Source of the DNA: Escherichia coli
GTDB lineage: Bacteria; Pseudomonadota; Gammaproteobacteria; Enterobacterales; Enterobacteriaceae
DNA: 64,000 nucleotides
Strand: one strand, 5' to 3'
Assembly: GCA_005400705.1 (NCBI GenBank)
Contig: GCA_005400705.1_4079.1
Shown here: one piece after another, positions 1 through 64,000 of the stretch
Position numbering within the stretch: the stretch's first letter is position 1
How the letters are laid out: every line of letters starts with the position of its first letter
Notes under the pieces: generated by a model
What the model was told of the DNA's origin: nothing
Database searches by the model: none
What the model saw: only the letters and a program-made list of their open reading frames with translations
Position numbers and translations under genes: made by a program

Positions 1-283
1 ATACAAAAGAACTTATTCCTGATATTGAGAAAAAATATTATCTTAGTATCACATTTGATGAACAAGGAAAACTAAATGCGTATTCCATAAATTCATCAGC
101 ACACGTTCCATTACATTCAACGTCAATTGGTGATAAACAATTACTAATCGATTCATCAACATGGCACAATAGGGAAAGTTTCTCCGCTGAAACTTTTCAG
201 TACTCGGTATCTGAACCAAAGTCTCCATTTGATTTTGTGTTTGTTAATAACATCCTTTTACGTTTTGGTGTAGGAGTCTAATT

Positions 284-637
284 ATGCTAATTTATTTGAG
301 TGTTCTTGTTATTTCATTACTGGTATCATTAGCAGTACTGAAAGCTGTTGCCATCGGTCGTAGTAAAATTGACAGTACTGAAACGAGTTCCGTTCTAGAT
401 TTGATTATGGATCATCCTAAAGTCTGTGGTATTATTGTATTGTTTGTTATTCTGATTAATACGTATATTGTCAGGGATCATTTATATAATATGTATGATT
501 GTAGTGTTAGATCTATATCACAAGGTGTTGAAACTGACTATAGCTGGTACTATGAGAAATGTAGATTTAAAAATCAGCATGGTATTTGGGTTGATTTTGA
601 CAAACTACGTGGAACTCCTTCAGGAGAAGAAGAATAA
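284..637 (+). CDS. small membrane protein (hypothetical)
   Basis: ORF with SD GGAG upstream; hydrophobic N-terminal segment MLIYLSVLVISLLVSLAVL. Confidence 0.5.
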   Translation: MLIYLSVLVISLLVSLAVLKAVAIGRSKIDSTETSSVLDLIMDHPKVCGIIVLFVILINTYIVRDHLYNMYDCSVRSISQGVETDYSWYYEKCRFKNQHGIWVDFDKLRGTPSGEEE

Positions 638-639
638 TT

Positions 640-1131
640 ATGTTTGAGTTCCCAGAAGAGTCATTTGACTTTATTGACCCTACTGATGATGGATACCGAC
701 ACATTAACATTTATAGTAAAGCTAGAACTAAGTTAGGTAGAGATCTATCTAACTTTTCTTCGCATAGCTTCACACTTGAACCATATGGTTGGTTCCCTTC
801 AGTTGAAACATTTTACTTTTGGTTTTTAACTGGGCAAAAACATGATGACCTTAGAAAAGTATCTGGTGCAGCAGCAAAAGCAGCCGCTAACAAATATATG
901 CATGATCGAATTGAAATGACGGATGATTGTATTTCTATTATTCAAGATGCTATTTGTGCTAAGATAATTCAAAATCCAGAGTTAGCCGAAAGATTAAGAA
1001 AAAGCAAGTTACCTTTTTACCATTACTATGTATATGGTGGTAAAGTTGTAGATGTATCCGACGAACATGATTGGTTTGTTAAAACATTCGAATATATAAG
1101 AACGGTGTTAAAGGAAAACTATAATGGGTAA
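640..1131 (+). CDS. NADAR/YbiA-like (DUF1768) protein, putative ADP-ribose-processing hydrolase
   Basis: Segment FSNFSSHSFTLEPYGWFPSVETFYFW resembles the YbiA/NADAR core (FSNF...W..SEHYFQ); ATGA overlap with upstream ORF. Confidence 0.5.
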   Translation: MFEFPEESFDFIDPTDDGYRHINIYSKARTKLGRDLSNFSSHSFTLEPYGWFPSVETFYFWFLTGQKHDDLRKVSGAAAKAAANKYMHDRIEMTDDCISIIQDAICAKIIQNPELAERLRKSKLPFYHYYVYGGKVVDVSDEHDWFVKTFEYIRTVLKENYNG

Positions 1132-1402
1132 ATGTTGGGTATGCTTCAAGGTGTTTGATGAAGAATATGAAATAATATTAGATGTATTGCCACAGCAGTA
1201 CATGGTGTGTAATGAAAAATACAAATTGGACACCTACCCGACCCCCAAGTACATGGGAATATGTCCTTTGTGTGATGCAAATGGCGTGTCCAATAGTGAG
1301 ATTTCATTCACTAACCAAGCCACAACTAACTGTGTATCTGGGTATATAAGAGAGAATCGAGAATATTTTATTAGGAGATTATATGAACGACAAAATCTTT
1401 GA
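1124..1402 (+). CDS. hypothetical Cys-rich small protein
   Basis: ORF overlapping upstream stop; CxxC...CxxC pattern suggests a zinc ribbon. Confidence 0.4.
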   Translation: MGKCWVCFKVFDEEYEIILDVLPQQYMVCNEKYKLDTYPTPKYMGICPLCDANGVSNSEISFTNQATTNCVSGYIRENREYFIRRLYERQNL

Positions 1403-1613
1403 TACATATGACATCGATACTTTACTAACACCATCTGATAACAGTACTGTTAAAATGGACATGTACTGGATTGTCGTTGATAAAAAAGTATTTAGACATA
1501 AAATTACTAAAGTTTGGCAATGTAATAAAAACAAATCTATTGTTGAAGGATTGGCACAATGCATTCCTAATGCAGAGGTTTTATTTTTACCATATGCATA
1601 TACAAAGGAATAA
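1383..1613 (+). CDS. hypothetical protein
   Basis: ORF with SD GGAG; translationally coupled to neighbours. Confidence 0.4.
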   Translation: MNDKIFDTYDIDTLLTPSDNSTVKMDMYWIVVDKKVFRHKITKVWQCNKNKSIVEGLAQCIPNAEVLFLPYAYTKE

Positions 1614-1614
1614 A

Positions 1615-1776
1615 ATGAAAAAAACTTGGAAAATATTCACAATACCTGCTATAATGTTGTTATTGGCACTTTTCACACCGCAGAGTCATGTATTGTCTCT
1701 TAACATTGTGGAAATAATTCTTCTTGTAATTCACTGTGTCGTGTGTTATAATTATGTAAAAGGTGATAAAGAATGA
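1615..1776 (+). CDS. small membrane protein (hypothetical)
   Basis: Internal ATG of track ORF 1471-1776 preceded by AAGGA; hydrophobic MKKTWKIFTIPAIMLLLALF. Confidence 0.45.
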   Translation: MKKTWKIFTIPAIMLLLALFTPQSHVLSLNIVEIILLVIHCVVCYNYVKGDKE

Positions 1777-2195
1777 AGTTCTTTAAAATTCGAATTGGTG
1801 TAAGTTCTGGTTTATCTCATTGGGTATTTTATGATTTACCTGATAGTTATACTATTGATGATGTAATTGATTTATATACCGAAGATCAACAATGGGTGTT
1901 AGATACCGAAACACATAGAATTGATTGTCAAGAGATTAGTGAAGAAGATTACAAGCACGGAAAGCAAGCCATGAAGTATTTTGAAACAAATATCAAAATG
2001 CTGTCTGAAAACGTATTTCCTGTAAAAGAATGGGCAATTTTACTTGCTAATCCTAAAAAACCTGTTAGAATTGGTTATCCAAATTTTCATATGGTGTATC
2101 GTATGAATGATAAGCGAGAGCTTAACTATCAATACGATTACGATTCATCTAAGTTTGGAGTTCTTAAACAATTTTTAAAGGCTTATCCAGTATGA
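1773..2195 (+). CDS. hypothetical protein
   Basis: ORF, SD AAAGGTGA, ATGA overlap with upstream gene. Confidence 0.5.
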   Translation: MKFFKIRIGVSSGLSHWVFYDLPDSYTIDDVIDLYTEDQQWVLDTETHRIDCQEISEEDYKHGKQAMKYFETNIKMLSENVFPVKEWAILLANPKKPVRIGYPNFHMVYRMNDKRELNYQYDYDSSKFGVLKQFLKAYPV

Positions 2196-2527
2196 GTGAA
2201 GATAGTAAAGAGTATATTTTACGTTGTTCTTGTGGTGATAAAATGGAGCATTGCGTTCACATTGCACAATTTGACTTGACAGAGGAATATGGAGATGATA
2301 AACTTGGTCAATGTCTGATAAGTATGCGTTTAAATCCTTTTTTAAAATGGTATAACCGTGTATGGGTTGCAGTAAAGTATGTTTTTGGTGTAAACGACTA
2401 TCAATATGTAGAAGCAACAATTGATGTTGACATTCTAAAAGAAGTTGTGTTACAATTAGAAGATACTAGAACTGATGAGGTTAAAAAAGAACAAAGAGAA
2501 AAACGTACTGATGTGAAGGTTTTATGA
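2192..2527 (+). CDS. hypothetical protein
   Basis: ORF overlapping neighbours by 4 nt. Confidence 0.45.
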   Translation: MSEDSKEYILRCSCGDKMEHCVHIAQFDLTEEYGDDKLGQCLISMRLNPFLKWYNRVWVAVKYVFGVNDYQYVEATIDVDILKEVVLQLEDTRTDEVKKEQREKRTDVKVL

Positions 2528-2718
2528 GTACTGAACTTTATGAAAAAAAGTACTGTACAAATTGCTCAACTGAGTATACAATACAAGGTATGTTGATTTG
2601 TACAATATGTCAGTCAAAGAAATCAGCAACTTTCATCGTTGATGATAGATTTGGTGATTTGAAACAGTTTAAAGCAAACCGCAATCTTCGTATTTTTAGC
2701 AATCTAAATAAGGAATAA
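2524..2718 (+). CDS. hypothetical zinc-ribbon protein
   Basis: CTNC...CTIC pairs of cysteines in a 64 aa ORF. Confidence 0.45.
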   Translation: MSTELYEKKYCTNCSTEYTIQGMLICTICQSKKSATFIVDDRFGDLKQFKANRNLRIFSNLNKE

Positions 2719-2721
2719 TAT

Positions 2722-3150
2722 ATGAATATCGAACAAACTATCCGTGAACATTCTTTCTTCGCTCCAGAAACTGGTCGTGTTATTGAGAGCGTCAAAATCG
2801 AAGAACTAATGGTCAATGTTAAATACAAAGAACCAAATGATGAGATTAGCAGTACTTTTTGTGCTCTACGTGCACCATTCCGTAATGAAAAAGCTAAGAA
2901 ACCAGCATATGTTCTTGCCATTGCACTGGGTTGTGTTGTAAAACTTGCAGTTGATGAAAATCTTCTGAATATTAAAGTTGCACCAAGCAATGACGATGAA
3001 AACATTGATTTGAACTTTGATGGTTCTCTTGATGAAGATGTATTTTTCCAACAGTCACTTGTTTACGACTTCCGTACAGTGACACATTCTCACATCAAGT
3101 TCATTAATGAAATGGTTGAGATTGTTGCTGAATACGAAGAATCTCTCTAA
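2722..3150 (+). CDS. hypothetical protein, EExFFQxS-motif paralog family
   Basis: SD AAGGA; C-terminal region LDEDVFFQQSLVYDF. Confidence 0.6.
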   Translation: MNIEQTIREHSFFAPETGRVIESVKIEELMVNVKYKEPNDEISSTFCALRAPFRNEKAKKPAYVLAIALGCVVKLAVDENLLNIKVAPSNDDENIDLNFDGSLDEDVFFQQSLVYDFRTVTHSHIKFINEMVEIVAEYEESL

Positions 3151-3162
3151 GTAAATACAAAA

Positions 3163-3184
3163 GCCTCCATCATGGAGGCTTTTA
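3163..3184 (+). terminator. intrinsic terminator
   Basis: GCCTCCAT-CAT-GGAGGC hairpin followed by TTTTAT. Confidence 0.6.
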
Positions 3185-3203
3185 TCACATAAGGAAATGA
3201 AAT

Positions 3204-3755
3204 ATGATAGACCAAATTAAAATCCTTACAAAGCAAATCACTGATTTTCTTTCTGATAAAGATGGATTTAATACAGAAGTAAAAATGCACGGTGTTAGTG
3301 TTGATGTAATTGCACCAAATGGTAATGTAACAAGTTACGACATGTATGAATTACTTCTTTATACTCTAGCAGTACGTAAACTAGGTAGTGATATTGAACT
3401 CAACATCAATACTGATGAAAGTGGAAATAAAATTTTTGCAATCAACACCAGTGCTAAATTCGATATCAGTACTGAAATTAAAAAAATAAATGAAAGTTTT
3501 ATTGGCTTTAAGCATGAATCAATTCAAAGTGTTTTTATTGGAAAGCAAACTTCTAATAGTGAATGCCCATATTGTGTAATGACTTTATATAAAGATGGAA
3601 ACTGGATGCGTCAAGATTTAGTATTTGCTGAACTTCTGTATGCATTTACACATGAACTTAAAATCGAATTGGACGATAGTGTTTATTGCTTTAAGAAAAT
3701 TCGCAATATAACTAAAGATATACAAACCCAACTTAAAGAATTAAATGATAAATAA
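3204..3755 (+). CDS. hypothetical protein
   Basis: 183 aa ORF with SD AAGGAAA. Confidence 0.55.
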   Translation: MIDQIKILTKQITDFLSDKDGFNTEVKMHGVSVDVIAPNGNVTSYDMYELLLYTLAVRKLGSDIELNINTDESGNKIFAINTSAKFDISTEIKKINESFIGFKHESIQSVFIGKQTSNSECPYCVMTLYKDGNWMRQDLVFAELLYAFTHELKIELDDSVYCFKKIRNITKDIQTQLKELNDK

Positions 3756-3871
3756 ATATACCAGAAATGGTTAACATATCATGTTACTTTCCTCCCTTAC
3801 ATAATAATGATGCGTTATTATATTTTCATTTTGTTCTTATTCCCCTTTTGGTACAAAATCATTTTAGTACT

Positions 3872-3895
3872 GCCCCGTTCTTCGGGGCATTTTTA
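3872..3895 (+). terminator. intrinsic terminator
   Basis: GCCCCG-TTCT-TCGGGGC hairpin followed by ATTTTTATT; lies inside the 5' part of track ORF 3767-4312, so that ORF start is probably too far upstream. Confidence 0.55.
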
Positions 3896-3916
3896 TTATC
3901 TAAAATTCGAGTATAT

Positions 3917-4312
3917 ATGAAAAATAATATTGGAACTTCAATAATTAAACCACTTTCTTATTACCTTGAAAAATTTAGAAGCACAAATGGTAATAAATTT
4001 AATAATATATTTCAGTTCTCTCATAAAGAATATATTACAATTGATCATTTTTCAAAGAAACTAATGTATGTAAATGATAATATTAATATTATTAAATTAT
4101 CATTCGATATTGAGTTAGATAAATTAACATTTACTGAATACATTAATAAAAAAACTTCTTTTTTATGTCAATACAATAGGAAAGTATATAGTAATATTTC
4201 TATGTATCTAAATGATGAATATCACTTTCAACAATCTACAATAGAAGAAGTATTATTCAGTACTGAAGAATTAAAAGAACTATATTACTGGTATAATTAT
4301 TTTACATCTTGA
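3917..4312 (+). CDS. hypothetical protein, EExFFQxS-motif paralog family
   Basis: In-frame ATG downstream of the terminator; motif NDEYHFQQSTIEEV; no obvious SD. Confidence 0.5.
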   Translation: MKNNIGTSIIKPLSYYLEKFRSTNGNKFNNIFQFSHKEYITIDHFSKKLMYVNDNINIIKLSFDIELDKLTFTEYINKKTSFLCQYNRKVYSNISMYLNDEYHFQQSTIEEVLFSTEELKELYYWYNYFTS

Positions 4313-4367
4313 CATTATTGTGGGTTTATCCTACAATACATGATGATGCTGCATTGAGGATAAATTT

Positions 4368-4778
4368 ATGAGTTTAGATTTACACAATGAAATAAAATAT
4401 TTTTTAGATTTGAACATATCAGAATTGAACCACCACGTCAATCATATGACTAGTACTGTATGGTGGTCTAATGAACAAGACGACCCAATTATCCAACTAA
4501 GTGATGAATCGTCAATTATGCGATTTTATAAGATTAATTATAAAAAGAACATCAAGATCACATATGTACCATACAAAAACATACTACTAGTCGAAACACT
4601 TAATCCAAGTTCTTTATTAAAAATCACCGATTTAGATACATTACAAACAAGTGAATCTTTATTCCAACGTTCATTAGTTGATGATCTTGGTGGTATTACT
4701 TTTGAAGATATATTACAATTCAAGAAGATGTATAGTGAATTGTTAGAGATTAAAAACACTTTAGTAATGAGGAATTGA
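4368..4778 (+). CDS. hypothetical protein, EExFFQxS-motif paralog family
   Basis: SD GAGGA; motif SESLFQRSLVDDLGGITFEDI. Confidence 0.6.
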   Translation: MSLDLHNEIKYFLDLNISELNHHVNHMTSTVWWSNEQDDPIIQLSDESSIMRFYKINYKKNIKITYVPYKNILLVETLNPSSLLKITDLDTLQTSESLFQRSLVDDLGGITFEDILQFKKMYSELLEIKNTLVMRN

Positions 4779-4779
4779 T

Positions 4780-5184
4780 ATGGTAAGTTTACTAGATATT
4801 GACAATACCAGTTTAGTGCTGGTGAAAAAAGGTTTAATTCCCAATTCTACAAAAATTGATTATGCTGTTATTGAAACAAATATGGGAAATATCTGGTATG
4901 ATTCAGAAAGTGATATTGTGATTAGCTGTGTAGACAGTGATCGTTCTGAATGTTGTAGAGTCGGGCATGACGGACAATTTGTTTTTGAATTTCGTTATTG
5001 GAAGGACTCAAAATTTCACCAAGAACTGGTTGCATTGTCAAATGAACTGTATACAGAAGAAACTTTCTTCATGGAAAGTACTATTAATAATGTTGGTTCA
5101 GTAACATATGAGCACTATAAAAAAGTATATGCACTATTCAGAGAAGTTATGAAAATTATCAGAACTGCTGAAGGTAACGAATAA
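4780..5184 (+). CDS. hypothetical protein, EExFFQxS-motif paralog family
   Basis: SD GAGGAA; motif TEETFFMESTINNVGSVT. Confidence 0.6.
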   Translation: MVSLLDIDNTSLVLVKKGLIPNSTKIDYAVIETNMGNIWYDSESDIVISCVDSDRSECCRVGHDGQFVFEFRYWKDSKFHQELVALSNELYTEETFFMESTINNVGSVTYEHYKKVYALFREVMKIIRTAEGNE

Positions 5185-5185
5185 C

Positions 5186-5563
5186 ATGACTACTATATAT
5201 GATATTTTGGGTGTTCTGAGTAAAAATATAGATGATGATTTTGTTATTGTTCAAGATACTAGAAATACATTTCAACTACCATTAGGTTCACCAGATAGGT
5301 TAATTTTTAATAGATACTCAAATGAACTAACTTACATCCATGATGGGATTGCAATTGTATCAGTTTCTATAAACGACTATACAATACGATATGTATATGA
5401 CTTCAACAATTATTGTACAAGAATCCACAGTATTGATATTTCCGAAGAGGAACTATTCCAATTGTCAGTGATTGAGAAAAATGTAATAGGAATTACAGAA
5501 ATTAATATTGTTAAAAAAGCATTAAACTATACGAATATAAGAATTAATGGTGGGTGCAGATGA
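5186..5563 (+). CDS. hypothetical protein, EExFFQxS-motif paralog family
   Basis: Motif SEEELFQLSVIEKNVIGITEI. Confidence 0.55.
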   Translation: MTTIYDILGVLSKNIDDDFVIVQDTRNTFQLPLGSPDRLIFNRYSNELTYIHDGIAIVSVSINDYTIRYVYDFNNYCTRIHSIDISEEELFQLSVIEKNVIGITEINIVKKALNYTNIRINGGCR

Positions 5564-6015
5564 ATGTTGACGAAATAAAAAATCATTTTGAAATTGCAAT
5601 GTCATGTGAATTTGACACACAACGTGTTCATGACCCGAAAGAACATATACGCATTTGTTGTGAATTGTCAGATGATTGTAATATTTTTATTGGAAAAACC
5701 TATGACATGATCGATCTTTCATGTATAGATCCATTGGAAAGAAAAACAAAATATTTATATCTGTACAACACAACATCAGATACGATTGCAATACAACTAA
5801 TATCAACCACAACATCCCAAAGTTATTATAACATAACTGAGGTTAGTAGTTTATCGTTAACCGAAGAAGGATTCTTTCAACAATCGCTTATTCGTGAAAT
5901 TGGTGTTAGTTATGATGAGTTAAATGTATTAGTAGATTGTTTCGAAAAATTGAGTACTTTTGTATTATCCCTTTTTAATATACAGTCGCAAAATCCAATG
6001 GTGGTGAAATGCTAA
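5554..6015 (+). CDS. hypothetical protein, EExFFQxS-motif paralog family
   Basis: Motif TEEGFFQQSLIREIGVSYDEL. Confidence 0.6.
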   Translation: MQMNVDEIKNHFEIAMSCEFDTQRVHDPKEHIRICCELSDDCNIFIGKTYDMIDLSCIDPLERKTKYLYLYNTTSDTIAIQLISTTTSQSYYNITEVSSLSLTEEGFFQQSLIREIGVSYDELNVLVDCFEKLSTFVLSLFNIQSQNPMVVKC

Positions 6016-6449
6016 ATCCAAGTAAATTTCTCCACTTACTTTCGATAACATCAATACCGGATCTTACCAGTGAAACTAATGAATATCGTGAAGCTGGGGT
6101 GGTGTCTATGGAACTCGATACATTTGACCACAAATGCTATGTGACATATGACCCACCGCGTTATGGTAAAGAACATTCTTCTTTTATTTTTGTATTCGTA
6201 TACACTGTATATGATAATACAACACTTGATGATGTTTGTATTGACACTTACGAAATTTGTGATAATATCATAACTGATGACAACAATAACTCATTTGATA
6301 TGTCACTATATAACACAGAAGAATCGTTGTTTCAACTTAGTACTGTTATTGATGCACCATCATTAGAAGATATAAAACAATTTCAAGAACATCTTGACGC
6401 AGTTCGTGAGATGTTCTATAATCATTATCCAGAAGTAGAGTTCAATTAA
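6009..6449 (+). CDS. hypothetical protein, EExFFQxS-motif paralog family
   Basis: Motif TEESLFQLSTVIDAPSLEDI. Confidence 0.6.
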   Translation: MLNPSKFLHLLSITSIPDLTSETNEYREAGVVSMELDTFDHKCYVTYDPPRYGKEHSSFIFVFVYTVYDNTTLDDVCIDTYEICDNIITDDNNNSFDMSLYNTEESLFQLSTVIDAPSLEDIKQFQEHLDAVREMFYNHYPEVEFN

Positions 6450-6463
6450 CTAAAGGTAATAAG

Positions 6464-6724: not shown

Positions 6725-6802
6725 GGAAATATATGTCTGAAAAGCCAAAAGAACCATTAGATCGTGATGATGATTTTTATGACGAACGATATGGAGATGA
6801 TG

Positions 6803-7054: not shown

Positions 7055-7069
7055 ATAAGATGCTATAAT
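7040..7069 (+). promoter_or_regulatory. sigma70-like promoter upstream of methyltransferase gene
   Basis: TTGGAA - 18 nt - TATAAT. Confidence 0.4.
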
Positions 7070-7106
7070 ATATCAGAGTACCTTAACAATATAAAAAGGA
7101 TTTTAT

Positions 7107-8987
7107 ATGAAACCTATCCGAGTACTATCTCTTTTTAATGGAATGAGTGTAGGATACATGGCATTAAAAGATGCTGGTATCCCTGTTGAAAAATATTATT
7201 CATCCGAAATTGACAAATTTGCTATAGCTGAATCCCAAGCTAACTTCCCCGATATAATCCAATTGGGTGATGTAACTAGATGGAGAGAATGGGATATTGA
7301 ATGGGATAAGATAGATCTACTGATGGGTGGTTTTCCATGCTTCCCAGCAGGAACTATGATAATGACAAATAAAGGTCATAAAGATATAAAAGATATAAAA
7401 ATTGGTGATATGGTTCTTACACACACTGGACAGTACCAAAAAGTATTGAGTACTGGTGTTAAAAAGGCTCCCACTCGTATTATTACAGGTCAAGGTCACC
7501 TTCCAATTGAGTGTACCGATAATCATCCATTTTGGAGTAGGGAACGTCTAGCCAATAAATGGAATAATCAACGCCGAAGATATGATTCTGTGTTTTCTGA
7601 ACCGCAATGGGTAAATGCTATAGATCTTACTAAACAAAGTTATATTTGTAATGTTAAAAATATTACACATAATACAGTAAGTGATAAAGATGAAAAATAT
7701 TGGTATTTTGTTGGTCGTTTTATGGGTGATGGATGTGCTAGTGTATCTAATAACAAATACAGTATTACTATTGTAGATTCATTAGATAAAGTTGATGAAT
7801 TGAAAAAATGTTTTGATGATTTTGGATACAAATACACATTAGCTATTAAAGATAATCATGTAAGATGTGATATATATAGCAAAAAGCTTTATGATGAATT
7901 AATATGTATTGGGCATAAATCACAAAACAAATGTTTACCACCTGAAATATTCAATGAAACTATCAATAACAAAGAAGCATTTATTAAAGGATACATGGAT
8001 GCAGATGGTTGTGAGGATAAACACAATAAAAAATACAAATTTACCACCACAAGTTATAAAATAGTTCTTGGTATGCAACAGTTAATCTTAGATACTTATC
8101 AACGTCATTGTACTATTAGTCAAACTGTTCCAAAAACAAAAAAATATATAAAAAATAAGTTGGTTAATCAGCTTCCGTATTGGAATGTTCATTTTAGCTA
8201 TAATAAAATTAAAAGAGATGATGTAATATATGATGAAATTTATATATGGAATCGTGGTGTAAAAAGTAATGTACCAACCGGAGAATGGAAAACCGTTTAC
8301 AATATTGAAGTTGCAGTAGATAACACATATACGGCGAACAATATTGTAGTTCATAACTGCCAAGCGTGGTCAGTTGCAGGTAAACAGGGTGGAATAAATG
8401 ATCCTCGTGGTATGTTATTCCATACAATGGTTGATATTTACCAGCACATAAAAAGTCTCAATCCAGACTTGAAAGTACTGTTCGAGAATGTTAAAATGAA
8501 AGAAGATTTCAAGCAATACATTAATAGTGTTCTTGAGATGACACCAGTACTGATAAATTCCCAGCATTATACGCCTCACTTCAGGCAGAGATATTACTGG
8601 TACAGTACTGATAAACTTTTTATACCACCTGCATTATCAAATGCACCTAAACTTCAAGATATTATTGAAGATGGTTGGTACACTGACAGAACCGCTTCGT
8701 ACTGTATAGATGCTAACTATTTTAAGGGTGGTGATTGTAACCAGTACTTTAATAAATCAAGAAGACAAATTGTTTTCAAAGAACCTGATATCGATAGGGA
8801 TTTCCTTATTGAACATGGTAAGCGAAATGTGGACTATCGTCATTTAACAGTACAAGAGTGTTGCATGTTGCAAGGAATTGATGTAAACTACTTCAAAGTT
8901 AGTAGTTCAACACAAGCATACAAAATGCTTGGGAATGGATGGACTATGCCAGTTATATCACACTTACTACGAGATATATTCTTTTGA
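7107..8987 (+). CDS. DNA (cytosine-5)-methyltransferase, intein-containing precursor
   Basis: C5-MTase motif I FNGMSVG, split motif IV GGFP / CQAWSVAG, motif VI ENV (VLFENVKM); a 340 aa insertion lies between them. Confidence 0.8.
   Translation: MKPIRVLSLFNGMSVGYMALKDAGIPVEKYYSSEIDKFAIAESQANFPDIIQLGDVTRWREWDIEWDKIDLLMGGFPCFPAGTMIMTNKGHKDIKDIKIGDMVLTHTGQYQKVLSTGVKKAPTRIITGQGHLPIECTDNHPFWSRERLANKWNNQRRRYDSVFSEPQWVNAIDLTKQSYICNVKNITHNTVSDKDEKYWYFVGRFMGDGCASVSNNKYSITIVDSLDKVDELKKCFDDFGYKYTLAIKDNHVRCDIYSKKLYDELICIGHKSQNKCLPPEIFNETINNKEAFIKGYMDADGCEDKHNKKYKFTTTSYKIVLGMQQLILDTYQRHCTISQTVPKTKKYIKNKLVNQLPYWNVHFSYNKIKRDDVIYDEIYIWNRGVKSNVPTGEWKTVYNIEVAVDNTYTANNIVVHNCQAWSVAGKQGGINDPRGMLFHTMVDIYQHIKSLNPDLKVLFENVKMKEDFKQYINSVLEMTPVLINSQHYTPHFRQRYYWYSTDKLFIPPALSNAPKLQDIIEDGWYTDRTASYCIDANYFKGGDCNQYFNKSRRQIVFKEPDIDRDFLIEHGKRNVDYRHLTVQECCMLQGIDVNYFKVSSSTQAYKMLGNGWTMPVISHLLRDIFF
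7338..8357 (+). other. intein with LAGLIDADG homing-endonuclease domain, inside the methyltransferase gene
   Basis: Begins with Cys (CFPAGT...), ends ...VVHN followed by Cys; two LAGLIDADG-type motifs (YFVGRFMGDGCAS, FIKGYMDADGCED); the +1 residue is the PCQ catalytic Cys. Confidence 0.75.
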
Positions 8988-15628: not shown

Positions 15629-15643
15629 ACGTTACTTTGTAAA

Positions 15644-15671
15644 TACCCAGTCAAGTACTGGGTATTTTTTT
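15644..15671 (+). terminator. intrinsic terminator
   Basis: TACCCAGT / ACTGGGTA hairpin followed by a T7 run. Confidence 0.6.
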
Positions 15672-15682
15672 AAGGAAATAAA

Positions 15683-18876: not shown

Positions 18877-18977
<101 letters not shown>

Positions 18978-19315: not shown

Positions 19316-19729
<414 letters not shown>

Positions 19730-19786: not shown

Positions 19787-19824
<38 letters not shown>

Positions 19825-21459: not shown

Positions 21460-21750
<291 letters not shown>

Positions 21751-22347: not shown

Positions 22348-22431
22348 AAGAACGAAATGTAGACGGTTGTATTCAGTACTGAATCACATGGGGAGGTTGT
22401 GATTCCCGATTCAGTAGCTTATAAAGCAATT

Positions 22432-22537
<106 letters not shown>

Positions 22538-24762: not shown

Positions 24763-24817
24763 GATAGCTTCTAGTCAGTACTGATTCCTCCTTATGTATA
24801 GAAGCTATCACTTTTTT
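24763..24817 (+). terminator. long hairpin + T-run (terminator or regulatory structure)
   Basis: 11 bp arms GATAGCTTCTA / TAGAAGCTATC around a 24 nt loop containing TCAGTACTGA, followed by a T6 run. Confidence 0.45.
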
Positions 24818-38091: not shown

Positions 38092-38119
38092 CTTGACAGA
38101 AGATATCAGTACTGTATAA
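38092..38119 (+). promoter_or_regulatory. sigma70-like promoter with extended -10
   Basis: TTGACA-GAAGATATCAGTACTG-TATAAT. Confidence 0.6.
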
Positions 38120-38165
38120 TGTTTATATCAAACGAAATCCACTTTAACAAATGATAGGAAATATT

Positions 38166-42187: not shown

Positions 42188-42417
42188 TACTAAGTTTTGT
42201 TGTTGCACTATTGTTTATGTTTTATCCTACACTAGTAGCATTAGCCACTAAACGACCGATTGTAGATATCACTACTGTATTCTTGCTAAACGTGGCATTA
42301 GTACTGGTTTCTATTATCATTCCCGTGAGCTTTACTGTTATTGATATTGTGTCGGTATTACTCTTCGTAATCAGTTATCTTATGCTTATTGAAGAAAAAC
42401 CAGTTGACAACCATTAG
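42178..42417 (+). CDS. small membrane protein (hypothetical)
   Basis: Two TM segments. Confidence 0.45.
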   Translation: MYLVLSFVVALLFMFYPTLVALATKRPIVDITTVFLLNVALVLVSIIIPVSFTVIDIVSVLLFVISYLMLIEEKPVDNH

Positions 42418-42431
42418 TAGTACTGTATAAT
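42404..42431 (+). promoter_or_regulatory. sigma70-like promoter with extended -10
   Basis: TTGACA-ACCATTAGTAGTACTG-TATAAT. Confidence 0.55.
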
Positions 42432-52756: not shown

Positions 52757-52784
52757 TTGACAAACACATTCAGTACTGTATAAT
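52757..52784 (+). promoter_or_regulatory. sigma70-like promoter with extended -10
   Basis: TTGACA-AACACATTCAGTACTG-TATAAT. Confidence 0.6.
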
Positions 52785-55786: not shown

Positions 55787-55853
55787 TTACATGTATTGAC
55801 AGTACTACACTATGGTAGTACTATAACTTAATATTCACCACCGGAGATACGAT

Positions 55854-57556: not shown

Positions 57557-57557
57557 T

Positions 57558-57920: not shown

Positions 57921-57921
57921 T

Positions 57922-58293
57922 ATGAGTTACCGTGAGATATTTTCCATTATTTCAATTATTATGTTCAGTACTGGAACACTGGTATGGTTATTATATTTCT
58001 TCTGTATTAATCCAGTGTATAATATGTTATGTAATATTAAATCAAGTGCCGGATATATCACTTTTATGGTCTTTATGGGATATTATTGTCTAAGCATTTT
58101 AGGTGTTGTTTTGGTTGTTATATTTGATGTGGGGCCAAATAGTGATGGTATGGAAATACATGAATTAATAACCATGTTTGGATGTATGATACCAACAGCA
58201 CTACTGTTTGTAGCTACTGGTAGTGGATTGATAAAATTATATAATTATTTAAAATCCATTCATAATTCCATTCATAATAAGCGTATGTCATAA
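57922..58293 (+). CDS. small multi-TM protein, array B member 7
   Basis: SD GAGGAAA; hydrophobic, C-terminal basic tail. Confidence 0.5.
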   Translation: MSYREIFSIISIIMFSTGTLVWLLYFFCINPVYNMLCNIKSSAGYITFMVFMGYYCLSILGVVLVVIFDVGPNSDGMEIHELITMFGCMIPTALLFVATGSGLIKLYNYLKSIHNSIHNKRMS

Positions 58294-58335
58294 TAAAAAA
58301 TCCAGTACTATTAAGTACTGGATGTATAAGGAGTT

Positions 58336-58998
58336 ATGATGAAATCAAAATTAGGTTTGTTTTATAAAAACTATTTTGTTAAACAACGTAAATTTATAAA
58401 AAAATATTTCTCTGGTGAGAAGTCTAGTCCTATAATTTTTAAAAGACCAAGTTATAATACTTACTTAGCTTGTGCTAAACAGTCTAAGAAATTTATTACT
58501 CTTTTAAATAAAAACAAAATTAAAGCTTCTTATGTTGAAACGAGAAGAAACTCATCAATAACTCCTGGTGATTTTATTGAGTACGGATGTTTCAATATTA
58601 AGTATAATGATAATACATACTTTATGGATATTGATTGTAATACATCCAATCTTTTTAACATTGTAGTAAATCCATTAAAACAATATAATGTTTATGGTGA
58701 TTCTATTATCAAATTAATCAAAAACAAAGATGGCTTTGATTTTGAAATAAATGTTTTAGATGATAATTTTGACGAAGTACCCGTAAACCCTGAAATCTGT
58801 GATATTTTAAACAGTTTAAAAGGTAGTACCTACAATATATCATCTGATTTAATGTTTCAGTACTCATTAATCCATAAAGATATTGAAAAGTATATTGAAT
58901 GCTCCAGAATTTTGAATTTTCTCTATGATGAATTTAAAAAGAGTTCTAAAATAACTGCATACACTTTGTACAATATTCCTAAAATGGTGAATCTTTAA
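58336..58998 (+). CDS. hypothetical protein, divergent member of EExFFQxS family
   Basis: SD AAGGAG; motif variant SSDLMFQYSLIHKDIEKYIE; last plus-strand gene before the minus-strand block. Confidence 0.5.
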   Translation: MMKSKLGLFYKNYFVKQRKFIKKYFSGEKSSPIIFKRPSYNTYLACAKQSKKFITLLNKNKIKASYVETRRNSSITPGDFIEYGCFNIKYNDNTYFMDIDCNTSNLFNIVVNPLKQYNVYGDSIIKLIKNKDGFDFEINVLDDNFDEVPVNPEICDILNSLKGSTYNISSDLMFQYSLIHKDIEKYIECSRILNFLYDEFKKSSKITAYTLYNIPKMVNL

Positions 58999-59402
58999 CA
59001 AATACAGTACTGGCAACTCCACCGTCTGTAATATATTGTCCAGTACTGTAAATTTGTATACCATCGGTTAAGTAAGTTCTGTATAAAGTTGCTGTAACAT
59101 ATACGTTATTCATATTCATCTCTATTGGTAGTACACATTTGGTATAGGCCGACACATCTGTTTGTGTACCTATACCCAATTGACCTGCGTTATCGCCTGT
59201 GTTATTACCAGTTGCGTAAACACCCAATGAAGTTATAATATGATTAGAAAAATATGAATAACCCAAACTCTTGAGATTCTCTACTGTACAACGTACCATC
59301 TGACATAAGGGCAAAAACTGTTGTATCAGATGAAGCTATTTTTGTTACAGAAGGTTGTATGTTCTGTTTTGATGATGTGATAATTCTTCGAAAGGGTAGC
59401 AT
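58979..59402 (-). pseudogene. frameshifted, internally deleted copy of the RCC1-like repeat gene family
   Basis: Minus-strand ATG at 59402 after GGAGGA gives MLPFRRIIT... which stops after about 52 codons; the +1 frame continues as track ORF 58979-59314 whose C-terminus (AGQLGIGTQTDV...YRTYLTD...YSTGQ) matches the C-termini of the full-length paralogs. Confidence 0.45.
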
Positions 59403-59494
59403 TGTATCCTCCAAATGTAAATCATTATTATATTTAGGACAAAAAAATGCCAGTACAAGGCACTGGCATAAAATCTAAGCAGAAGGCATATCCT

Positions 59495-59605
59495 TCATCT
59501 TAATAAATGAAAATTGTGTACCAGTATTTGTGGTTCCAATTTCTTTATTTCAGGAAGAGTTGGTTTAATATTTCCGTACTTGACCATTCTTGCAAAAGGT
59601 AACAT
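59495..59605 (-). pseudogene. N-terminal fragment (36 codons) of an RCC1-like repeat gene paralog
   Basis: GGAGGGAATT-ATG then MLPFARMVKYGNIKPTLPEI... ending at a stop; carries the family promoter/SD context. Confidence 0.4.
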
Positions 59606-59678
59606 AATTCCCTCCTTTTATTTGTTATACTATATTTAATACAAATAAGAAAGCCAGTATCAAGTACTGGCTTTTACA

Positions 59679-60869
59679 TTACAATTGTCTAGGTGTATCC
59701 AGTACATATCTATTTGTACGAGGACCACCATCATCATCAGTTCCGGTTGAATATATATTTTTCATATCAGCAGTTAGGAAAGTACGATACGAACCGCGAT
59801 ATATTTTTATTTTATCATACATAGAATATGTTATTTCTGACGGCAATGGACATGCAGTAAATTTACCAATGGTAACATCAGAACCAACACCCAATGTGCC
59901 AGCATAACTACTCGCATTTAAACCAGTTGCATATACACCTGCACTCGTAACTAGTATACTAGATTGTGTTGGGTATCCAGTATGAATTGAATACAAAGTA
60001 CCGGGTGGTAAGGTTGTACTATTGTTTCCTAAAACTCCATTAACAGTGCTAGATGTAGTTTTATTTCCCCATGCTCCATTATTAGCTAATCCACCAACTA
60101 GAAACTGACGTGCTCCTGTATTTGGATTCTCCACTAAAGCACTGACTGAACCCATTGAGCATACAGTGTATTGTAACGTTTTTGTGTATGTTGTACTTGG
60201 CTGATATAAAGTATATTCATTATATAAAGTCCATGTAGTGCTGGAACTTATACCGGATGTACCACCACCAATATATAAATTATTTTGTGTATCAAAAAAC
60301 ATTGCACAGCTATTTGTTGACATTATTTGTGCAATATCAACATCTGGTGTTACAGCTTTAACAAATGAACCATCGGTTATTTGTTGAGTTTTTCCAGTAC
60401 CATCAGCGAATTGTTTAGCCCCACTCCAACCAGTACTCCATATTGTATTATTATCCATTAAGAAAGTAAACCACGTAGTACCTGCATACATCTGTTTAAT
60501 TGAAGTACTTGAACTTTGTGTGAACAAATTTTCAATATATTGGTTATAACTTAAAAATGATGTAGTACTAGTTTCTAAACCAATATGACTACCATATCCA
60601 CAATAAAAATAATTTAAGTCATTATCTTGTACTAACAAAGTTCCTTCTGACATCCAACAATCGTTAACGTTTTCTCTAATTAATGTCCATGTTCTTAATG
60701 CAGTGTTGTTTCCTCTCCCAAACTTCCCAAAACTATTATTGCCTCGTGCGTATAGTTGACCATCAGTATAAAGTACAACAACATCACTATTGATTGGTAT
60801 TATTTTCTTAATTTGAAGAGGCTCAGGTGTAATATTTCCATAATCAAACATTCTAACAAAAGGTAACAT
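59679..60869 (-). CDS. RCC1-like repeat protein with conserved MLPFVRMFDYGNI N-terminus
   Basis: Start set to the ATG after AAGGAGGAAAT (track ORF extends 22 codons further into the upstream repeat); repeated G-x-N-x-x-G-x-x-G motifs (YARGNNSFGKFGRGN, YATGLNASSYAGTLGVG). Confidence 0.6.
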   Translation of the reverse strand: MLPFVRMFDYGNITPEPLQIKKIIPINSDVVVLYTDGQLYARGNNSFGKFGRGNNTALRTWTLIRENVNDCWMSEGTLLVQDNDLNYFYCGYGSHIGLETSTTSFLSYNQYIENLFTQSSSTSIKQMYAGTTWFTFLMDNNTIWSTGWSGAKQFADGTGKTQQITDGSFVKAVTPDVDIAQIMSTNSCAMFFDTQNNLYIGGGTSGISSSTTWTLYNEYTLYQPSTTYTKTLQYTVCSMGSVSALVENPNTGARQFLVGGLANNGAWGNKTTSSTVNGVLGNNSTTLPPGTLYSIHTGYPTQSSILVTSAGVYATGLNASSYAGTLGVGSDVTIGKFTACPLPSEITYSMYDKIKIYRGSYRTFLTADMKNIYSTGTDDDGGPRTNRYVLDTPRQL

Positions 60870-60939
60870 ATTTCCTCCTTTATTCATTATACTATATTTA
60901 ATACAAAAAGAAATGCCAGTATCAAGTACTGGCATAATA

Positions 60940-62118
60940 TTATCGGTTAAATTTAAAATCTGTTATGTGTGTCCATGTATGATTTAATGGTGTACTCATT
61001 GGTGTAAAGCCAGCAGGGTCTGACAAAGCTGTACCACGTGCGTACATAAATTGATTGCCAGTACAATCCATTATAGCATAAGAACGTGTTGCTGTGCCAC
61101 ATTTGAACCCAACTGCACTACTTGGGGTCGGTAATACTTCAAATGTAGGTGCATTTGAACTACCACCCCCATCTTTTGTTCCAGCTATGTACAGAACTCC
61201 ATTAGTATCAATGATTAAGTTAGTCCAATATGCTTGTTCTCGACCAGCATAAAAATATGTTAAATCACCGGGTACAAATGGTAACGTTCCTTTATATATT
61301 GTGGTATTAACATTCACTGGTGCACCAGCTACACCCCATGAACTCATATAGTTTCTCCCACTTGCGTAGAATGTAGTTCCTTTACCGTAAAGTATTAATG
61401 TTGCTTGACTTGTTCGCATTGCATTATATTCAAACTCAGGATCATCAGTAGCGTCCTTAAAAATCTGTGTCCATGTTGTTATATTGCCAGTAGTTGTAAC
61501 ACCCATTTGATAATAATAATTATCACCAGTAGCATAGAATTCTTTAGGGCCAGTTTGTACAATTGCATTCCCATTAGTTAACCAAAAATCTAATGTATTA
61601 GTCTTGATCTTGGTTGGTGTGTAATTCGCCACGGTATTTCCTTTTCCGAAATAACCATTAGCGTTATTTCCATGACCCCATAAATCACCATTAGTTGTGC
61701 GTAGGAATAATGTACCAGTATTGAATCCAACTTTTTCTATAGTACTTATGTCAATACCAACAGCAGTGTACTTCGTTGTAAAATCTTGAAAAGTACTCCA
61801 ATAATTTGATGAACCATTAAACATGGTTTGTCTGCCAGTGTACTTCACTTTATTATCGTTAGTGATAAGTAATGTCCCCCACACTGACGCGAACATTAAC
61901 TTAACATTTTCCATAACAAAGTATGGCTTACCGTATGCTGACGCGGTAGTGTTTAAACCTAATAGTTGTCCATCATTACTACAACCCCATACTTCGCCGT
62001 TATCCAAAAGCATCAACATAGTAGGTTTGCCAGATGATACATCCAAAAAGAAATCTTTTGGTGTTGGTACACCAGGTGTGATATTCCCATAATCAAACAA
62101 TCTTACAAAAGGTAACAT
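60940..62118 (-). CDS. RCC1-like repeat protein with conserved MLPFVRLFDYGNI N-terminus
   Basis: AAGGAGGGAAAT-ATG; motifs WGHGNNANGYFGKGN, YATGDNYYYQMGV. Confidence 0.6.
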   Translation of the reverse strand: MLPFVRLFDYGNITPGVPTPKDFFLDVSSGKPTMLMLLDNGEVWGCSNDGQLLGLNTTASAYGKPYFVMENVKLMFASVWGTLLITNDNKVKYTGRQTMFNGSSNYWSTFQDFTTKYTAVGIDISTIEKVGFNTGTLFLRTTNGDLWGHGNNANGYFGKGNTVANYTPTKIKTNTLDFWLTNGNAIVQTGPKEFYATGDNYYYQMGVTTTGNITTWTQIFKDATDDPEFEYNAMRTSQATLILYGKGTTFYASGRNYMSSWGVAGAPVNVNTTIYKGTLPFVPGDLTYFYAGREQAYWTNLIIDTNGVLYIAGTKDGGGSSNAPTFEVLPTPSSAVGFKCGTATRSYAIMDCTGNQFMYARGTALSDPAGFTPMSTPLNHTWTHITDFKFNR

Positions 62119-62189
62119 ATTTCCCTCCTTTATTCATTATACTATATTTAATACAAATAAGAATGCCAGTATCAAGTACTGGCATTATG

Positions 62190-63299
62190 TTATTTTGGTA
62201 AATCAATTTTAGTAAAGACTGCAACATCTTCACTTGCTCCTGGTATTGCGTAATAAGAACCAGTACTATACACATCTCCATTTTTGGTTAATATCGATGT
62301 CAAACCATCACTAAAAAGAACATCCCTAATCTCACTAACTTCAACTGGTAATTGTAAATTGGTAGCACTATATATAGCACCAGTTTGAGAATTGTTTAAT
62401 CCCAAACCACGGTTCGCCCCAACACCCTTCTGATATGTACTAGTAATTACCATTTGTGTAGCAGTATTTAAGGCAGGTGAATTCGTCATAAACAACGGAG
62501 AACTATTAGGCAAAGTACTTACAGGAACGGCACGGAATGTAGTCGTACCTGAACTAAGAAAGTTTGGAGTTTGACCACATACGAAATATGATGTACCATT
62601 ATAGTAATTGAATGCATTACCACCAATGGCTGCATCGATTACACCAGAACTACGCAATCCCCAAGTGTTAATTTGTGTTTGGTTCCCCGTACCATGCTGT
62701 CCACTACTATTCCATCCAGAACTATATAGCTTATTATCTAATGTAAGATACATACTATCATTCGCATTGGTCATTACTTTACGAACGTTCGTAGCACATT
62801 GAGTTAATGTGTAAATTGATGAGGAACCAATACCCAAAGAACCACGATATCCATTATCTCCTGCACCATAGAGTACTGAATTAGTGCTAAGTACAAATAT
62901 TAAACCATTTGTACATACAATATTAGCAATTTCACTTACTGGTATAGCATTGGTAAACCAATTAGTCCTTTCAACTAATACAGTACTGTAAGAAGTAGTT
63001 GTAGAAGATGAGAACCAGTACGTTTGACCTGATGTCCATATCGTATTATCATTTTTAATAATAACAAGTGTACGATCACCCACGAAAAAATTAGAAACAT
63101 CTGTACTTACTAATATCCATGAAGATACCGTGTTGGTATTACCATTTCCAGATTCACCACCTTGATTTCTACCTATGTAATATAAATCATGTGAATCAGT
63201 CAATAAGAATTGACCTTGTGTAGAAGCACCAACTTTAATTATATTTTTAGGACCAGGTACAATATTTCCGTACTTAACCATTCTTGCAAAAGGTAACAT
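62190..63299 (-). CDS. RCC1-like repeat protein with conserved MLPFARMVKYGNI N-terminus
   Basis: AAGGAGAGAATT-ATG; motifs YYIGRNQGGESGNGN, YGAGDNGYRGSLGIG, YSSGWNSSGQHGTGN. Confidence 0.6.
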   Translation of the reverse strand: MLPFARMVKYGNIVPGPKNIIKVGASTQGQFLLTDSHDLYYIGRNQGGESGNGNTNTVSSWILVSTDVSNFFVGDRTLVIIKNDNTIWTSGQTYWFSSSTTTSYSTVLVERTNWFTNAIPVSEIANIVCTNGLIFVLSTNSVLYGAGDNGYRGSLGIGSSSIYTLTQCATNVRKVMTNANDSMYLTLDNKLYSSGWNSSGQHGTGNQTQINTWGLRSSGVIDAAIGGNAFNYYNGTSYFVCGQTPNFLSSGTTTFRAVPVSTLPNSSPLFMTNSPALNTATQMVITSTYQKGVGANRGLGLNNSQTGAIYSATNLQLPVEVSEIRDVLFSDGLTSILTKNGDVYSTGSYYAIPGASEDVAVFTKIDLPK

Positions 63300-63309
63300 A
63301 ATTCTCTCC

Positions 63310-64000
63310 TTAATTTAATAATGCCCCTGGCAAATCCACTTTGACGAATTGTGCATATGCTGAGGAATTTTGATCAAAGTTTGGTCCCAATCCATAAAAT
63401 GAGCTAATGCCGTCTTCATTTGTGTATATGATATAAACGTTCTTTACATCATTTCCGCATATAAATCGAATGTCTTTCGTTTGTGTTCCCGCTGGAACAT
63501 TACGAAGGTTCACAACGCCATTACTTGCATTGTTATCAGCCGACGCAATTGGTAATTGATTTTGACCATATTGACCACGCATATTTTTTGCATCTAAACC
63601 AAACACAGTATTTGATACCGCACCAACTTTCAAAAATGAACCAAAACTATTATTGAATGACTTTGGAAATGTACCACTATAAACACTTCTCCCATCTGAT
63701 AATACCGCTGAACTGAATTTCCCGTTATTCGATATGGCAAATTCATTGTAAGGAAGTGTACCCATTTTGGTATATACAGAATATGAATTAGTGGAAGTAT
63801 TATCAATAATCTTATTACCATTATATCCAATACCATACTGGTATCCGTCTGCATCTTGAACTATACACAAAGGACCACTTGGGGTTTGTGTCAACGAAAC
63901 AACACGTTCAACTTGTATATCACCAAATGTATTTCTTCGCCATGTTCTATCTATTATAGTACTAGTATTACCCAAAGATAATTCCACACTATATAATAGA
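63310..64000 (-). CDS. repeat protein, 5' end beyond the window (partial); probable further paralog
   Basis: Open minus-strand frame runs to the window edge with no upstream stop; contains YGIGYNGNKIIDN and GLGPNFDQNS. Confidence 0.5.
   Translation of the reverse strand, partial: LLYSVELSLGNTSTIIDRTWRRNTFGDIQVERVVSLTQTPSGPLCIVQDADGYQYGIGYNGNKIIDNTSTNSYSVYTKMGTLPYNEFAISNNGKFSSAVLSDGRSVYSGTFPKSFNNSFGSFLKVGAVSNTVFGLDAKNMRGQYGQNQLPIASADNNASNGVVNLRNVPAGTQTKDIRFICGNDVKNVYIIYTNEDGISSFYGLGPNFDQNSSAYAQFVKVDLPGALLN

Follow-up and report, generated by a model that had tools for sequence, protein, structure and literature searches.

The palindrome AGTACT is over-represented throughout Asteriusvirus jumbo phage DNA and in an unrelated prophage family of Leclercia

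The locus and the excess of AGTACT

The stretch of DNA examined here, called the window throughout, is 64,000 nucleotides of an assembly deposited as Escherichia coli (GCA_005400705.1, contig GCA_005400705.1_4079.1), and the element in question is the hexamer palindrome AGTACT, the ScaI site, which a first-pass annotation of the same DNA had described as strongly over-represented. The window is 96–98% identical to Asteriusvirus jumbo coliphages such as JP4, SP27, 121Q and PBECO4 and matches about 55.4–119.5 kb of phage 121Q; on this identity, it represents the early-gene part of a jumbo phage genome of the Asteriusvirus 121Q/PBECO4 type. The plus strand holds 125 of the 137 predicted open reading frames (ORFs), most of them small and of unknown function, and Pfam recognised only RCC1-like repeats, a methyltransferase with an intein, HNH/NUMOD4, a sigma70-like factor and AAA_16. 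The window carries seven tRNA genes, an eighth being found by Rfam, and 23 strict sigma70-like promoters, all without exception on the plus strand. The palindrome is spread over the whole of this region:

1–64000, no strand: dispersed copies of AGTACT, 183 by exact count, of which 41 are CAGTACTG; spaced about 350 bp apart on average, within genes in every frame and also between genes

Mononucleotide composition predicts 21.7 copies for the whole window and a dinucleotide Markov model 18.1, so that AGTACT is in 8–10-fold excess over composition. Within predicted coding sequence (CDS) alone 148 copies were observed, where shuffling of synonymous codons gave 34.7±5.5 and permutation of codons 22.3±4.9, so that the codon-aware nulls were missed by about 20 standard deviations and the ratio of observed to expected stays far above one after codon modelling. 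An artefact of composition or codon usage is thus ruled out. AGTACT ranked first among all 4096 hexamers and was the sole strongly enriched hexamer palindrome, the runner-up being TGTACA at 2.5-fold. A generic effect of the GTAC core was also rejected; strong enrichment occurs only with A and T as the outer bases, the W..W hybrids are at about 2-fold, and CGTACG and GGTACC are absent. The 29 copies that had been counted by eye in the first 11.4 kb agreed with the exact count, and the excess stood when counting was carried to the whole 121Q genome (903 AGTACT versus 118 expected; CAGTACTG, 194 versus 3.4). No prior description of an excess of AGTACT, CAGTACTG or ScaI sites in these phages was found in the searchable literature.

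The coding copies are divided 72/31/45 among the three reading frames, in agreement with the claim that all frames are used, and the density is 2.7 per kb in coding and 3.8 per kb in intergenic DNA; in 121Q 81% of the sites lie inside CDS. The effect reaches into the choice of codons and of amino acids. Ser-Thr dipeptides were encoded as AGTACT in 72 of 126 cases (57%, versus 19 or 15% expected), x-Val-Leu contexts realised the word in 45 of 126 (10.9 expected) and [Q/K/E]-Tyr-x contexts in 29 of 70 (4.5 expected). Since the dipeptides ST and VL are themselves about 1.6-fold over expectation and the reversed dipeptides TS and LV are not, amino-acid usage as well as codon usage has been shaped by the word.

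The flanks of the hexamer were informative only at the immediately adjacent positions, with C at -1 (44–48%) and G at +1 (47%), and with G at -1 (6–8%) and C at +1 depleted. The two preferences are mutually independent, are reverse complements of each other and are alike in coding and intergenic sites. Such flanks are the mark of an agent with two-fold symmetry that recognises duplex DNA. The earlier proposal of a function at the level of DNA, rather than an artefact of coding or composition, is upheld by the failure of the codon-aware nulls, the use of all frames and intergenic DNA, the symmetric flanks and the positional conservation described below.

Conservation, clade distribution and a second phage family

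The excess is common to named phages of three genera growing on different hosts, namely 121Q, the Klebsiella phage RaK2 (107 AGTACT versus 10 expected) and the Pectobacterium phage CBB (84 versus 6.6). Among viral contigs, those with a major capsid protein sharing 89% identity or more with the 121Q protein were enriched 5–7-fold, two contigs of the same class and one at 72% identity were enriched about 3-fold, and all contigs at 69% identity or below were without enrichment. The excess is therefore clade-specific among jumbo phages.

Orthologous copies of AGTACT were kept between 121Q and RaK2, which have 72% nucleotide identity, in 38% of cases versus 12% for hexamers of the same composition (p=9e-4), and between the window and phage ph0011 (86% identity) in 63–83% versus 46–49% for controls. 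About two thirds of the sites are not shared between genera and yet the density is the same. The word is sparser in segments that were apparently exchanged recently, with 1.56 copies per kb in the tail-fibre genes of RaK2 versus 3.1 per kb elsewhere and a single copy in the 1 kb of the intein lying in the window's methyltransferase gene. Given that conservation exceeds that of controls and that sites turn over at a kept density, these alignments point to the number of AGTACT sites being under continuing selection or a restoring drive, with individual positions less constrained.

The IMG/VR collection was scanned for two copies of CAGTACTG within 34 bp. The matches were jumbo contigs and, in addition, a family of contigs of about 31–35 kb with 42% GC, represented by six loci and about 20 further IMG/VR loci. 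Members of this uncultivated family, of about 34 kb, show an 11–19-fold excess of AGTACT and contain no GCGC. They carry a lambda-type terminase and portal and a siphovirus tail and are found integrated as prophages in Leclercia chromosomes, where both signatures end sharply at the junction between prophage and host. In the Leclercia prophages AGTACT is in 13-fold excess and its flanks are those seen in the jumbo phages, with C at -1 in 64% of sites and G in 6%, and T at -3 and -4; the copies are in all frames (67 versus 14.9±3.0) and their positions are conserved at 72–78% versus 45–48% for controls. The phage collection held no isolate relatives of these small AGTACT-rich contigs. Searches at the sensitivity of blastp and phmmer found lysozyme as the only gene common to the Leclercia and jumbo families, no Pfam methyltransferase or recognisable repressor was present in about 31 of the 34 kb of the prophage family, and no promoters of the AGTACTG-TATAAT form were found in it. 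Because two unrelated families have the excess and share lysozyme alone, neither common descent nor, on the gene comparisons made, any gene detected as shared accounts for it. Such convergence without a shared DNA-acting gene gives real weight to a reader on the host side, or to analogous but unrelated readers.

An 11-fold excess of AGTACT was also seen in IMGVR_UViG_3300017648_000055, a viral contig of 60 kb that is related to neither family. Its palindrome profile differs, many AT-rich palindromes being absent and CAGCTG and CTGCAG present, and it may be a third independent case from another host group.

The two families together bear on whether AGTACT could be made or restored by a neutral directional process, such as a bias of mismatch repair or gene conversion resembling very-short-patch (VSP) repair. 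The high turnover at kept density and the near-random placement of sites (see below) fit such a drive, as does the lower density in recently exchanged segments, which slow amelioration predicts, and among the one-step neighbours enrichment is lowest for the transition neighbour AATACT/AGTATT (0.84-fold combined versus 1.7–1.8-fold for the other transition neighbours). However, orthologous conservation is well above that of same-composition controls in two independent families, which share no repair gene, and the annotation of 121Q lists no Vsr-like gene. At lineage-specific AGTACT sites a VSP-like signature was looked for and rejected, as the differences follow the abundance of precursors with no special mismatch signature. 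The known VSP bias in E. coli is far weaker than the effect seen here, and a neutral process does not predict the fixed promoter positions and 12–14-bp palindromes described in the next section. A purely neutral origin is quite unlikely.

A second word behaves in the opposite manner. GCGC is absent from the window (0 versus 48 expected) and from the whole of 121Q (0 versus 291), as it is from every AGTACT-rich phage locus including RaK2, CBB and ph0011, whereas it is at expectation in the non-enriched relatives and in phage phi92. A 50-kb sample of E. coli K-12 contained 6.8 GCGC per kb, or one per about 150 bp, and 0.06 AGTACT per kb (3 versus 11.6 expected), while the phage has 2.6–2.9 AGTACT per kb and zero GCGC; the contrast in AGTACT with the K-12 sample is about 45-fold. 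AGTACT and GCGC together therefore separate phage from host DNA almost perfectly. The absence of GCGC suggests pressure from a GCGC-specific nuclease of host or phage origin.

GCGC is part of a wider avoidance of palindromes, 16 of the 24 hexamer palindromes with four GC bases being absent from 121Q. The avoidance profile of 121Q was shared by the Leclercia prophage family (Spearman rho 0.83) and by phi92 (0.70) but not by non-enriched environmental relatives (0.1–0.3), and because the profile is common to the enterobacterial phages and not to those relatives, general palindrome avoidance is imposed by the host clade. The same genomes thus show textbook avoidance of GCGC and GC-rich palindromes, as known for restriction sites in phage genomes (Rusinov et al. 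2018, PMC6286503), and AGTACT goes the opposite way in them although both the 29 kb of phi92 examined (0 versus 9.2 expected) and the E. coli sample avoid it. Phi92 was also seen to carry several homologues of ORFs in the window.

Placement of the sites, promoters and hairpins

Enrichment was found in every 10-kb bin of 121Q. The late structural genes are lowest, with 12–25 AGTACT per 10 kb, which is still a 4–7-fold enrichment, and the maximum of 65 per 10 kb is at 130–150 kb in a region of tiny ORFs and a second cluster of sigma70-like promoters. The start of this cluster, at 135,194–137,161 of 121Q, is 2 kb without annotated ORFs packed with copies of the ttcAGTACTGAat type at up to 11 per kb, and may be a regulatory or origin-like region.

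The spacing of sites is near-Poisson, with a coefficient of variation of 0.89–0.92 (0.89 in the window), and 308 pairs were 130 bp or less apart versus 297 expected, so that there is no overall clustering. A distance of 20 bp was the sole clearly over-represented one in 121Q (9 versus 2.3 expected, with smaller excesses at 18 and 22 bp), and clustering or helical phasing was rejected as a description. An association with gene boundaries was likewise rejected, since density across them is flat save for 2-fold bumps at -80 to -40 from start codons and just after stop codons, which coincide with promoter and terminator positions, and a dip over ribosome-binding sites. Two islands of 121Q, 155,502–159,569 and 161,800–169,384 (4.1 and 7.6 kb), are free of AGTACT with sharp edges. 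They have 0 copies versus about 4 expected even from composition, their flanks carry 5–8 sites per kb, and they hold arrays of small paralogous ORFs that are free of GCGC too. A recombination signal had been put forward for the motif, but the 19 mosaic junctions found on comparing the window with 121Q do not fall on AGTACT, as would junctions of cassettes like the PeSL of T4-type phages; their median distance to the nearest AGTACT was 171 bp versus 122 bp for random positions, and two were within 15 bp versus 1.6 expected.

A minority of the copies occupy fixed positions in promoters. AGTACT abuts the -10 box in 5 of the 23 strict sigma70-like promoters of the window, so the statement that it does so in most promoters was too strong:

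19317–19344, plus strand: sigma70-like early promoter TTGACT-N9-CAGTACTG-TATAAT, with AGTACT at 19332–19337
19791–19824, plus strand: promoter with two AGTACT 20 bp apart, the copy at 19791 abutting the -35 box and the copy at 19811 in the spacer by the -10 box
38093–38120, plus strand: sigma70-like promoter TTGACA-N9-CAGTACTG-TATAAT
42404–42431, plus strand: sigma70-like promoter with AGTACTG abutting TATAAT
52757–52784, plus strand: sigma70-like promoter TTGACA-N9-CAGTACTG-TATAAT

AGTACT is present in the spacer of 17 of 65 promoters of 121Q and at the same offset, AGTACTG|TATAAT, in 13 of the 65 versus about 0.2 expected, the fixed arrangement being TTGACA-N9-CAGTACTG-TATAAT. These observations could be read as evidence that AGTACT is primarily an operator or promoter element for the timing of early transcription, the intragenic copies being incidental or weak secondary sites. 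The second copy found 20 bp upstream in some promoters, abutting the -35 box, the density peak at the second promoter cluster of 121Q and the 2-fold bump upstream of start codons all point in this direction. Nevertheless, only about 22–26% of sigma70-like promoters bear AGTACT, and such copies, some of which are paralogous duplicates, make up about 2% of all sites; a sigma70 element would be at a fixed position in most promoters and mainly intergenic, and AGTACT is neither. The late structural genes are still enriched, the density near gene boundaries is nearly flat, and the Leclercia family has the excess without the promoter arrangement. We therefore give little credence to the idea that regulation of promoters is the primary function of the word.

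Extended palindromes built on AGTACT, TTCAGTACTGAA and ATTCAGTACTGAAT, were found in non-coding DNA, TTCAGTACTGAA having 13 copies versus about 4 expected from independent flanks. The motif had been said to flank the tRNA island, but the two copies of ATTCAGTACTGAAT instead lie inside the tRNA region, in the interval between tRNA-Asn and tRNA-Thr:

22371–22384, no strand: 14-bp palindrome ATTCAGTACTGAAT, copy 1, intergenic in the tRNA region
22492–22505, no strand: 14-bp palindrome ATTCAGTACTGAAT, copy 2, 121 bp downstream of copy 1

Two other observations were made on the tRNA genes. The eighth gene, at 18877–18955, is tRNA-like by Rfam (32.6 bits) and was missed by ARAGORN, and its 121Q equivalent is annotated as tRNA-Leu(TAA). 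A predicted tRNA-Ser at 21499–21590 has the anticodon ACT and would read AGT. This triplet makes up 404 of the window's 1236 Ser codons, more than any other, and forms the first half of AGTACT when the motif is in frame. Bacterial tRNAs other than tRNA-Arg seldom have an unmodified A34.

The hairpins in which the motif had been noted are real and fold as claimed, and several terminator-like stems are made of CCAGTA..TACTGG:

15641–15675, plus strand: terminator-like hairpin, stem ACCCAGT/ACTGGGT and U-run, with AGTACT across the loop and 3' arm (-13.7 kcal/mol, z -4.0)
24763–24817, plus strand: terminator-like hairpin with AGTACT in the loop (-17.2 kcal/mol, z -4.9)
55801–55822, plus strand: hairpin with AGTACT in both arms, weak (z -1.3)
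58300–58323, plus strand: hairpin with a 10-bp stem, TCCAGTACT-atta-AGTACTGGA (-14.3 kcal/mol, z -6.1)
59650–59674, minus strand: terminator-like hairpin GCCAGTACT..TACTGGC after an RCC1-like gene, with a paralogous copy at 62162–62186

The last of these belongs to the opening part, at 59682–63299 on the minus strand, of a tandem array formed by RCC1-like repeat proteins, which has 13 paralogues at 117–131 kb in 121Q; a near-identical CCAGTA..TACTGG terminator hairpin was seen after every member of the array.

The hairpins raise the question of whether the word acts in RNA, as AGUACU, being a signal for processing or stability or a building block of hairpins. Its occurrence within several predicted terminators and hairpins and the 2-fold bump just past stop codons would fit. 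Against this, the majority of copies lie outside predicted structures and the reverse-complement symmetry of the flanks fits recognition of the duplex. Genes on the minus strand are equally dense in AGTACT (11 in 4.1 kb at 59.7–63.8 kb), though a palindrome makes tests by strand uninformative. A role in RNA is scarcely credible.

Candidate readers and the meaning of the excess

A short symmetric palindrome is typical of the targets of Type II methyltransferases and it had been suggested that AGTACT is the target of the encoded methyltransferase. The gene in question, at 7107–8987 on the plus strand, is a 626-amino-acid C5-cytosine methyltransferase ORF broken by a Hint/LAGLIDADG intein at about amino acids 77–417 (nucleotides ~7340–8358); 121Q lacks this 1,018-bp insert, its gene 91 encoding an intact, intein-less C5 methyltransferase of 286 amino acids. 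The N-terminal motifs of the window enzyme were seen to resemble those of Dnmt3-type enzymes. In addition, 121Q gene 417 is a Dam-family enzyme; PF05869 Dam enzymes are typically GATC-specific, which counts against it as the modifier of AGTACT. Homologues of the C5 enzyme are present in RaK2 (63% identical) and in phi92 (51% identical). RaK2 DNA is reported to be resistant to many restriction enzymes and to have its 5-methylcytosine in a CpG context by bisulfite analysis, the latter as data not shown (PMC3622015). Given that RaK2 bears a homologue and has methylation in CpG, which AGTACT does not contain, and that phi92 bears a homologue and has no AGTACT in the part examined, the window C5 methyltransferase is, by this comparison, unlikely to be the reader of AGTACT.

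The broader proposal is that AGTACT is the target of some DNA-modifying enzyme, a methyltransferase or other, and that selection favours many modified sites per length of DNA, for instance because they protect or mark the phage DNA. Besides the form of the site, the two encoded enzymes and the resistance of RaK2 DNA, it can draw on the avoidance of AGTACT by phi92 and the E. coli sample, a hint of AGTACT-specific restriction to which 900 unprotected sites would be dangerous. On the other hand the Leclercia family has the excess with no methyltransferase detected in the part searched, and being a target does not alone account for an 8–13-fold multiplication of sites. Taken with the evidence from RaK2 and phi92, this makes modification unlikely as the explanation.

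A host protein was considered next to the phage enzymes. The nucleoid-occlusion factor SlmA binds GTGAGTACTCAC (Tonthat et al. 2011, PMC3020112), a sequence whose central hexamer is AGTACT, and the phage sites could exploit SlmA, blocking cell division, or another conserved factor of Enterobacterales. All named hosts of the AGTACT-rich phages are Enterobacterales, and the sharing of an extended motif but no DNA-acting gene by two unrelated families points to a host-side reader. However, SlmA strongly requires G1, T2, A4, G5 and a purine at position 3 (GTRAGYRCTYAC; PMC3020112), and the phage sites have the wrong base at that position. Across the AGTACT-rich phages the -1 position, equivalent to position 3, is C in 44–64% and G in 2–10% of sites, and there is no enrichment of G at -3, equivalent to position 1. 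GAGTACTC is not enriched (3 versus 3.4 expected) and the full SlmA-binding sequence occurs 0 times in 121Q. AGTACT was therefore rejected as a SlmA site, and we know of no other host factor of AGTACT specificity; exploitation of such a host protein as the whole explanation is very improbable. A LexA box was also rejected. CAGTA and TACTG match the arms of the LexA consensus, but they are wrongly arranged, and only 5 pairs had the 18-bp spacing needed to give CTG-N10-CAG.

The reading we tentatively favour, while regarding it as somewhat likelier to be wrong than right, is that AGTACT, optimally T-T-n-C-AGTACT-G-n-A-A, is a dispersed duplex-DNA site for a sequence-specific protein of two-fold symmetry. 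Selection would act mainly on the number or density of sites, about one per 350–400 bp, and not on particular positions, so that phage DNA would be tagged along its whole length. A small share of the copies, of higher order and in fixed regulatory positions, that is the spacers of early sigma70 promoters, the 20-bp pairs and the 12–14-bp non-coding palindromes, would allow the same factor to modulate transcription there as well. The factor may be encoded by the host, and the absence of GCGC would mirror a discrimination between self and host DNA. The agent would, on this reading, be a binding protein rather than a modifying enzyme.

Several points weigh against this reading. Pfam found no helix-turn-helix or other DNA-binding domain among the 137 ORFs of the window, and thus no candidate binder, and the two families that would need a reader have only lysozyme in common at blastp and phmmer sensitivity. 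A site of 6–8 bp is short for a specific binder and sequence data alone cannot tell binding from modification. The conservation above background could also stem from a repair drive restoring near-cognate sequences, and the two sharp-edged AGTACT-free islands of 121Q are not explained by the model. The step to discrimination between self and host is wholly inferred, and the host estimate comes from a single 50-kb sample of E. coli K-12.

A bolder form of the proposal is that unrelated enterobacterial phages, namely virulent jumbo myoviruses of 350 kb from three genera and the 34-kb temperate siphovirus family of Leclercia, have converged on an identity code of two words. AGTACT (TTnCAGTACTGnAA) placed every ~250–400 bp and the elimination of GCGC would be read by a factor, possibly host-encoded, which decides the fate of the DNA, be it protection, silencing, degradation or packaging. 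This we regard as doubtful.

Judged by analogy, the closest described phenomenon is HIP1 of cyanobacteria, of which the AGTACT case is an analogue and not a member. HIP1 (GCGATCGC) is a hyper-abundant palindrome kept at orthologous sites whose reader and function are unknown (Xu, Lawrence & Durand 2018, PMC5861425). HIP1 and AGTACT are each short palindromes in many-fold excess across a genome, within and between ORFs and in all frames, and each is conserved at orthologous sites above expectation, which argues for selection over neutral replenishment. The features by which HIP1 is defined operationally, an excess over composition and codon nulls, presence in coding and non-coding DNA and conservation above control words, were all found for AGTACT. 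The two differ in that HIP1 is a fixed 8-mer of a cellular chromosome, whereas AGTACT is a 6-bp core within a degenerate 8-mer of other sequence and lies in a 350-kb virulent phage genome and a 34-kb prophage family. The excess of HIP1 is 15–300-fold, that of the AGTACT hexamer 8–13-fold and that of CAGTACTG about 57-fold. HIP1 spacing is periodic at 10–90 kb while AGTACT spacing is near-Poisson as measured at 0.5–2 kb, and for AGTACT no overlapping site of a methyltransferase is known.

Other dispersed words are less close. The sites of SlmA, Noc (NBS), MatP (matS) and ParB (parS) are likewise dispersed palindromes, and are read by a symmetric dimer, but these systems have tens of sites of 12–16 bp where there are about 900 AGTACT sites of 6–8 bp; the SlmA site shares the central hexamer but its required outer positions are absent here and position 3 is of the wrong base class. 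The uptake signal sequences (USS), DNA uptake sequences (DUS) and Chi are, like AGTACT, words over-represented genome-wide; they act, as AGTACT would, in self-identity or protection and are selected for density. They are, however, asymmetric, strand-oriented and tied to competence or RecBCD, whereas AGTACT is palindromic with symmetric and independent flanks. Pairs of DUS double as terminator stems, comparable to the CCAGTA..TACTGG stems seen here.

Phages are known for avoiding short palindromes, and here one has been raised about ten-fold in genomes that otherwise avoid palindromes to an extreme degree. The composition itself, rich in AGTACT and free of GCGC, is a sharp signature for recognising such phages and the boundaries of their prophages. 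If a reader protein exists, it would be part of a new genome-wide DNA-marking system in jumbo phages, a group in which about 80% of genes are without known function and which is being considered for therapy. It would also offer a small and tractable model for the question posed by HIP1, the purpose of hyper-abundant palindromes. The paired absence of GCGC suggests a mechanism for telling phage from host DNA and, if true, the two-word code would be a new kind of sequence-based discrimination between self and non-self in the conflict of phage and host.

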